A stretch of 59,627 nucleotides of DNA, counting the filler, from Dugesia japonica (taxonomy: Eukaryota): the NCBI GenBank assembly GCA_001938525.1. It is 4 parts of 4 records of this genome, joined end to end, with 100 filler letters (N's around TTAATTAATTAA, not from the genome) between each part and the next. Parts side by side here need not be neighbours in the genome. Positions count along the whole stretch, not along the records: positions 11,490 to 30,776 come from MQRL01637019.1; 3 more parts are not named here. One strand, given 5' to 3'. Made by a program: the position numbers and the translations under genes. The notes beneath the pieces were generated by a model. That model did not search any database, was not told the DNA's origin, and saw nothing but the letters and a program-made list of their open reading frames with translations. Of this stretch, positions 22,921-23,269 are shown one piece after another (the first letter of the stretch is position 1; each line of letters opens with the position of its first letter).

Positions 22921-23269
22921 AGAATAAGATTGCTAAATAGTATCCGTAAATGCCACAAACTACTAACAAAATTCATAATAGAACGACATTACGCCAAAAG
23001 ATGTGAGCGTACCCTACACTGCAACATCTCCCCAAAACCGGCTCATTCTTAAGCTGGAGGTCGTTTCCAAGAACCAATTGGAAATCGCCAACCGTGCTAA
23101 TCTGCAATCGACTCGTAAGGTCAACTTCTTTAAGCAATATATTGCTGACCAGTCCACCCGTCTAGAGTTGGAAACCTGCACAAATTGGAACAACGATGAT
23201 GATGAGCCTGCGTTCGACTTTTCGGACGACGCGCTTGCTGAATGGCTCAATCCGAGAGCTTATGATTGA
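22921..23269 (+). pseudogene. homolog of LTR ORF-A (frameshifted near 23010)
   Basis: IRKCHKLLTKFIIERHYAKR / QNRLILKLEVVSKNQ / RKVNFFKQYIAD / EWLNP align with IRRCHRILRRLLIERHLKRK / RDRLIKKLDLVIKKQ / RKIDFLKQYISD / QWLDP. Confidence 0.8.

Follow-up and report, generated by a model that had tools for sequence, protein, structure and literature searches.

A stretch of 59,627 nucleotides of Dugesia japonica DNA (hereafter the window) contains two copies of a small protein-coding sequence borne by long terminal repeats (LTRs), and by sequence comparison these appear to define a real LTR-borne small-protein family without known relatives. One copy, ORF A, is still open, while the other, copy B, is a dead, frameshifted fossil. 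Comparison of the two supports past purifying selection on the encoded protein, and it is highly probable that they represent a once-functional LTR-borne accessory protein. The LTR holding ORF A (LTR A) was inserted into an older, related LTR (LTR B) that carries copy B. An earlier sequence-only reading of this DNA had drawn attention to the pair, but had overlooked the frameshift in copy B, the nesting of LTR A in LTR B and the fact that ORF A is only one of four ORFs of its LTR.

When ORF A was used as a tblastn query against the window it recovered copy B (E=2.5e-15) as two blocks, one of 23 amino acids and one of 83 columns, each 39% identical, and besides copy B no match fell below E=0.76. 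The two frames of copy B scored 67 and 141 against maxima of 59 and 55 in 2000 shuffles, none of which reached either score. All six motifs quoted in the earlier reading were present, the spacing of W..DD..F.F being approximate, and the DNA was as diverged as had been claimed, with 53% identity between A and B over 101 aligned codons. Identity at codon positions 1, 2 and 3 was 58, 67 and 36 of 101 (p=2.8e-5). When the alignment was built from the DNA only, and thus blind to the protein, the counts were 66/106, 69/103 and 43/102 (p=6.8e-4), so that the codon-position bias behind the proposal of past selection on an LTR-borne protein holds there too. Different codons were used at 22 of the 41 identical residues, and in neutral simulations at equal DNA identity 41 identical residues were reached in only 1 of 5000. 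The suggested check by codon alignment and dN/dS gave values not near 1: pN was 0.39 and pS 0.74, a pN/pS of 0.53 (bootstrap 0.40-0.70), with a corrected dN/dS of ~0.18 at saturated dS, figures that derive from two sequences only, one of them dead.

Copy B occupies 22921-23269 on the plus strand, and had been described as an open reading frame aligning with ORF A at the protein level. The homology stands, but the intact reading frame does not, as translation and tblastn split the match to ORF A over two frames. The frame from 22921, which holds the N-terminal block, hits a stop at 23050-23052, the remainder is read in the frame of 22982-23269, and the switch between them is located between 23011 and 23032. 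The first frame lacks an in-frame ATG, as both ATGs of 22831-23030 fall outside it, and it is the match across two frames together with this absence that marks copy B as dead. A single-copy DNA contig from a short-read run (X1, possibly the window's own sample) spans 22797-23700 with seven differing letters and no gaps, so the break is not confined to this assembly, even if X1 may be the same sample, and an assembly error is disfavoured. Depths of 30 and 207 in the X1 bins over copy B indicate few close relatives. The idea that a flatworm spliced leader might supply the AUG was rejected by eye for both copy B and the second ORF of LTR A (ORF2), since the nearest acceptor-like sites before them are out of frame.

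The proposal that the two copies belong to two diverged LTR lineages is borne out by the LTR termini and target duplication that were observed, by resemblance to the end of a Gypsy LTR and by 5' parts that are homologous. LTR A (17415-22237, minus strand, 4,823 bp) has short inverted TG..CA ends and is flanked on both sides by TAAA, a 4-bp target-site duplication, and over 109 nt its 3' end (at 17415) shares 79% identity with 59274-59380, in the LTR of a decayed Gypsy element (element C) whose reverse transcriptase is Ty3-like; it is thus a Ty3/Gypsy solo LTR. The empty site is also found, as at least three X1 DNA contigs among the matches listed join 17402-17410 to 22266-22271. To the left of the insertion lies the 5' start of LTR B (17216-17414, plus strand), whose 17-bp terminus is of the type seen in LTR A, and to the right its continuation (22242-22741, plus strand), which alignment with LTR A shows to end at a TATA-like box. 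Over 400 nt, positions 22340-22741 and the 5' part of LTR A are ~61% identical, up to the TATA-like box common to both (21635-21645, minus strand, in LTR A; a motif whose function would be that of a promoter element), and this shared segment supports the two diverged lineages. None of 300 block shuffles reached the score of this alignment, which was 110 against 62 for the best unrelated control. One unrelated control reached 1/300, and weak scores between AT-rich sequences were discounted for that reason. Comparisons of LTR A with the DNA downstream of B, the 3' region of element C and 41600-42230 gave no homology above shuffles.

Between the TATA-like box and copy B lies an unexplained copy of the LTR 3'-end motif (22762-22830), in the opposite orientation to LTR B. 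In the window the 5' end and the shared 5' segment of LTR B were located, but not its 3' end. Copy B could be antisense in a truncated minus-strand LTR, and with the inverted end motif and the missing 3' end it may be read as sense or antisense either way. DNA contigs join the 22762-22830 type of motif to an LTR terminus elsewhere. LTR B was itself inserted just beside a 146-amino-acid ORF (16769-17209) with no Pfam match, and LTR A includes a tandem repeat of three ~124-nt units (20877-21243).

LTR A contains four small ORFs on the same strand, with a GC content of 0.42-0.48 against 0.15-0.31 in the spacers, and each was stop-free in only 0.04-1.8% of 5000 shuffles. The last of them is ORF A (17649-17999, minus strand), with at least 116 open codons (17652-17999) and a start hidden by an N run at 18000-18031, and just behind it is an AATAAA at 17635. 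ORF2 (18158-18520, minus) encodes 99 amino acids from its ATG, is coiled-coil-like and remains open further upstream, where there is a basic stretch. Near its C-terminus is a KGTQT that we take to fit the dynein-light-chain-type (TQT) motif. Searches with ORF2 returned only sub-threshold Pfam and weak Atlas coiled-coil matches; among the latter CCDC3 (0.93, with low recognition and 2 of 10 in agreement) was rejected as a generic coiled coil. ORF3 (18672-19058, minus) has at least 128 codons, its start being hidden by an N run at 19059-19108, and 12 of its 22 N-terminal residues (55%, pairwise E=1e-7) are identical to those of a short frame that lies in element C's LTR (59401-59466, minus), ~130 nt from the end of that LTR. 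ORF4 (19227-19412, minus) has 61 amino acids from an ATG directly behind a splice-acceptor-like site. Under a strict acceptor rule such a site precedes one of the four ORFs (two are hidden by N and one lacks it) and not copy B, which weakens a splicing model.

The anatomy given to the ORF A protein beforehand, a basic helix, a coiled coil and an acidic aromatic tail, proved right by both structural model and composition. A single-sequence model predicts that residues 2-81 form one helix (pLDDT 82-95), followed by a tail modelled with low confidence. Residues 1-30 form an Arg-rich N-terminus with 11 K/R, a hydrophobic heptad face (6/7) runs along residues 59-81, and the 35-residue tail has 8 D/E, 5 aromatics and no K/R. 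Residues W88, D92, D93, F97, F99, W107, L108 and P110 are common to A and B. In the order of its parts only (basic region, heptad helix, acidic aromatic tail) ORF A fits the layout of bZIP-like proteins or viral transactivators, but no homology to known transactivators or bZIP-like families emerged from Pfam, phmmer, PDB-profile or Foldseek searches. A transmembrane stretch was absent from copy B and the visible parts of the four cassette ORFs, where the maximum 19-residue hydropathy was 0.03-0.63, and with it the central transmembrane segment that is the hallmark of sORF2/FAST-like fusogens.

That no family could be recognised was likewise upheld, no host or database family being matched in sequence, family or fold searches. 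A word-index search restricted to proteins of 63-203 amino acids gave seven candidates, none at E<=0.01, and phmmer against 1.84 billion representatives gave none at E<=0.001. The best ESM Atlas value (0.78) was no relative, and neither 35 pattern matches in viral contigs nor 482 in metagenome contigs included a confirmed case. Pfam gave a single match at E=0.05, below the cut-off. The fold check by Foldseek against viral and PDB structures returned no matches, for a single helix that makes a poor query. Three PDB sequences matched a profile of A and B at E~0.5 and were ignored. A caveat that applies to all these searches is that proteins of this host may be scarce in the libraries, so blank results do not prove novelty.

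Taken in full, the reading that we hold tentatively, as plausible rather than probable, is that ORF A and copy B represent an accessory gene of very long Ty3/Gypsy LTRs whose product was a soluble nuclear regulator of the element's own expression. Such LTRs would have in common their 5' promoter segment and their 3' end, and would vary in the interior, where the small genes lie. Transcription from the LTR's own promoter would give short RNAs, probably spliced and terminating at the AATAAA (17635); this motif and a donor-like site at ~21512 (minus strand) fit such transcripts. The ORF A protein may then have acted as a soluble nuclear regulator raising the expression of its element, the basic N-terminal helix serving in nucleic-acid binding or nuclear import, the long helix in oligomerisation and the acidic W/F tail in recruitment of a host factor. 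A putative role as transcriptional transactivator is plausible, and within the nuclear-regulator reading we rank transcriptional activation slightly ahead of RNA export.

The latter is the best survivor among the rival explanations, albeit an unlikely one. It envisages a post-transcriptional factor of the Rev or CERV kind, with the basic helix binding element RNA, the helix oligomerising and the tail recruiting the export machinery. While the Arg-rich N-terminus and long amphipathic helix would suit such a role, there is no sequence or fold match, and an acidic W/F tail is distinct from the leucine-rich export signal. Splice-like sites do occur in these elements, and CERV is a Gypsy-type precedent for a novel protein made from a spliced RNA (PMC10309623, as far as the available part of that account extends). 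Next comes the possibility, also improbable, that the coding islands are a captured host exon or a fragment of another element's polyprotein, passive within the LTR, with a selection signal that predates capture. GC-rich islands with intron-like AT-rich flanks might be expected of this, as might LTR interiors that differ between families, and accessory ORFs of Burro elements can be polyprotein subdomains (PMC6431247, in the part available). Yet no relative was found among the 1.84 billion representatives, A is still open even though its synonymous sites are saturated relative to B, the open ORFs number four on one strand, and A and B sit in homologous LTRs.

Quite unlikely is a third alternative, a cytoplasmic adaptor or silencing antagonist whose W and F-D/N-F tail would mimic the bipartite DDX6/Me31B-binding motifs and engage RNA granules. 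Partners of DDX6 are described, in the accessible part of the account, as having short W and FDF motifs with acidic residues before them (PMC6771390). The tail of the ORF A protein has a W, an F-D/N-F nine residues on and then another W in an acidic context, and A and B agree without change at W88, F97, F99, W107 and D92/D93. The motif was, however, spotted after the fact in two sequences, of which A has FNF and B has FDF, and among the window's 119,250 six-frame codons F[DN]F turns up 62 times, in 10 cases with an acidic residue upstream. Finally, a chance likeness or a purely DNA-level duplicate free of protein selection is very improbable, for although B is broken, expression was not seen and coiled-coil composition may inflate scores, the tblastn E-value, the shuffles and a third-position deficit that persists in the protein-blind alignment largely refute it.

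Small regulatory genes within or beside an LTR are familiar from Retroviridae, for example sag of MMTV, nef of HIV, Tas/Bet of foamy viruses and Tax of HTLV. Unlike these vertebrate cases, in which there is usually one gene in U3, LTR A has several downstream of its TATA-like box, and no sequence or fold match between ORF A and retroviral LTR genes or transactivators was found in Pfam or by Foldseek (viral and PDB). Returning to the preferred reading, an accessory regulator, the best analogy for the ORF A protein appears to be with MDG1 sORF1 or Cer1 CERV. The sORF1 of the MDG1 group in Drosophila (412, Mdg1, Blood, Stalker) encodes ~110 amino acids, has a low dN/dS, is subnuclear and has its own short transcript, according to the available part of PMC11952523. 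By that description ORF A is similarly a soluble Ty3/Gypsy accessory ORF of ~110 amino acids with low dN/dS. On the other hand sORF1 lies upstream of gag and has a predicted helix-turn-helix, whereas ORF A lies between the LTR termini as one of a set of four, with a single 80-residue helix and an acidic tail. Its location allows ORF A to survive in solo LTRs. There were no phmmer matches between ORF A and sORF1, whose inclusion in the library is uncertain. We regard sORF1 as probably the closest in manner, as an analogue.

In C. elegans the available part of the report on Cer1 describes CERV as a novel regulator from spliced element mRNA, with a function that has been shown (PMC10309623). ORF A resembles it as a novel, here putative, regulator in an invertebrate LTR retrotransposon, with no sequence likeness found. 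The giant planarian Gypsy elements Burro and GYPSM1 share with the present elements an AT-rich genome, a multi-kb LTR and accessory ORFs, and, with element C, a gag with three CCHC knuckles (two or three in Burro) and a long insert between gag and protease. They differ in an internal part of up to 25 kb against ~13 kb in element C, and no MATH, BIR, ankyrin, BCL2 or env match was obtained in the pieces of element C scanned with Pfam, where decay lowers sensitivity. The accessible portion of the Burro/GYPSM1 account does not mention genes inside LTRs (PMC6431247, the source for these comparisons). Conserved extra ORFs of obscure origin and without non-TE homologues are also known from the plant Gypsy elements Grande, RIRE2 and Retand, where they lie in the internal region, mostly from pol to the 3' LTR, whereas those of LTR A are between the LTR termini (PMC7264820, in the part available). 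The available portions of PMC11410931, PMC13238120 and PMC13524379 held nothing on LTR genes. No account of this family or of LTR-internal ORF cassettes was found in the literature searched, with the proviso that the original Burro description may show LTR ORFs. Invertebrate Gypsy accessory genes have recently been proved functional in the cases of CERV, sORF1 and sORF2. The best reading by analogy is that ORF A and copy B would be a further case of Gypsy accessory small ORFs, the novel points being a family with no database relative and the placement between LTR termini.

A wider interpretation, possible but doubtful, is that these LTRs are self-contained modules, each with a shared promoter segment, a poly(A) site, a shared end and an interchangeable cassette encoding as many as four small proteins under selection, such that every remaining solo LTR would be a potential expression unit. 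The cassette would then comprise the nuclear regulator, a TQT-motif (dynein-light-chain-type) protein and two further proteins. If this were true, proteins from solo LTRs could modulate the host and, during lapses of piRNA control, work in trans on elements that are silenced; were they expressed, solo LTRs would encode proteins as well as serve as promoters. Several genes between LTR termini, multiplied as solo LTRs, are an unusual placement for a family without a database relative, and they offer defined targets for asking by what means giant retroelements control their own activity or withstand silencing.

Estimates of abundance and expression came from X1 and three RNA runs. Over the listed positions of ORF A the summed X1 contig depth was 2,286-5,541, compared with ~9-10 for single-copy contigs, a sum that is not a copy number but that points to many related copies. 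Of the 12 indels listed among copies, out of 35, one fell inside ORF A and kept the frame; it lies near residue 52, where the length of copy B also differs from A. Contig depth was lower in the spacers of LTR A than in its ORFs, which was not counted as evidence. The RNA reads placed on the window numbered 199 in 13.6 million, 57 in 11.6 million and 23 in 10.5 million records, with zero depth in the bins over ORF A in all three runs; over copy B one run reached 0.18 in a single bin. These reads were partial fits or overran the ends, mostly at the LTR-end motif, their loose ends leading to other families, and no RNA run was listed as containing the sequence in a sequencing-run search. Both loci thus look silent in the sampled RNA, which fits the piRNA control of LTR elements reported for planarians in the available part of PMC8532177. 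At 17443-17502 RNA reads of related LTR families match the LTR-end motif partly and in both directions, and these partial fits indicate that some family sharing this LTR end is transcribed.

Element C (46300-59627, minus strand), which supplies the carrier context identifying LTR A through its LTR end at 59274 and its domains, runs off the window. Its ~3,100 codons extend from gag to beyond RNase H and encode a gag with three CCHC knuckles, a long insert without a Pfam match, a protease-like region with two protease-like motifs, a reverse transcriptase (RT) and RNase H; an integrase was not recognised. The RT matches Pfam RVT_1, and its best PDB matches are to the Ty3 RT (E=2e-29). A PBS-like site, read by eye, adjoins the LTR end and is presumably tRNA-Pro-like. 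A search of the window for tRNA genes found none. Within element C were also seen a threonine-rich ORF with a hydrophobic tail (47060-47569, minus), an ORF with a coiled coil and perhaps a 63-nt intron (46444-46946, minus) and, in the leader, a tandem repeat of three 141-nt units (58217-58612).

Several other features of the window were observed. A small ORF at 41809-42204 (minus), with its ATG right behind an AG, has a coiled-coil stretch, a basic PKKARR and an acidic tail; it adjoins the end of a Gypsy integrase and no likeness to LTR A was found. Decayed Polinton/Maverick-like pieces are present at 24000-30000, 35944-36633 and 40291-41011 (plus), including an A32-type ATPase (Pfam PF04665, E=2.4e-8) and integrase-like and capsid-like frames recognised by eye. 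Broken Tc1/mariner-like transposase frames, also read by eye, occupy 15839-16836 (minus), and an 11-nt tandem array lies at 11437-11968.
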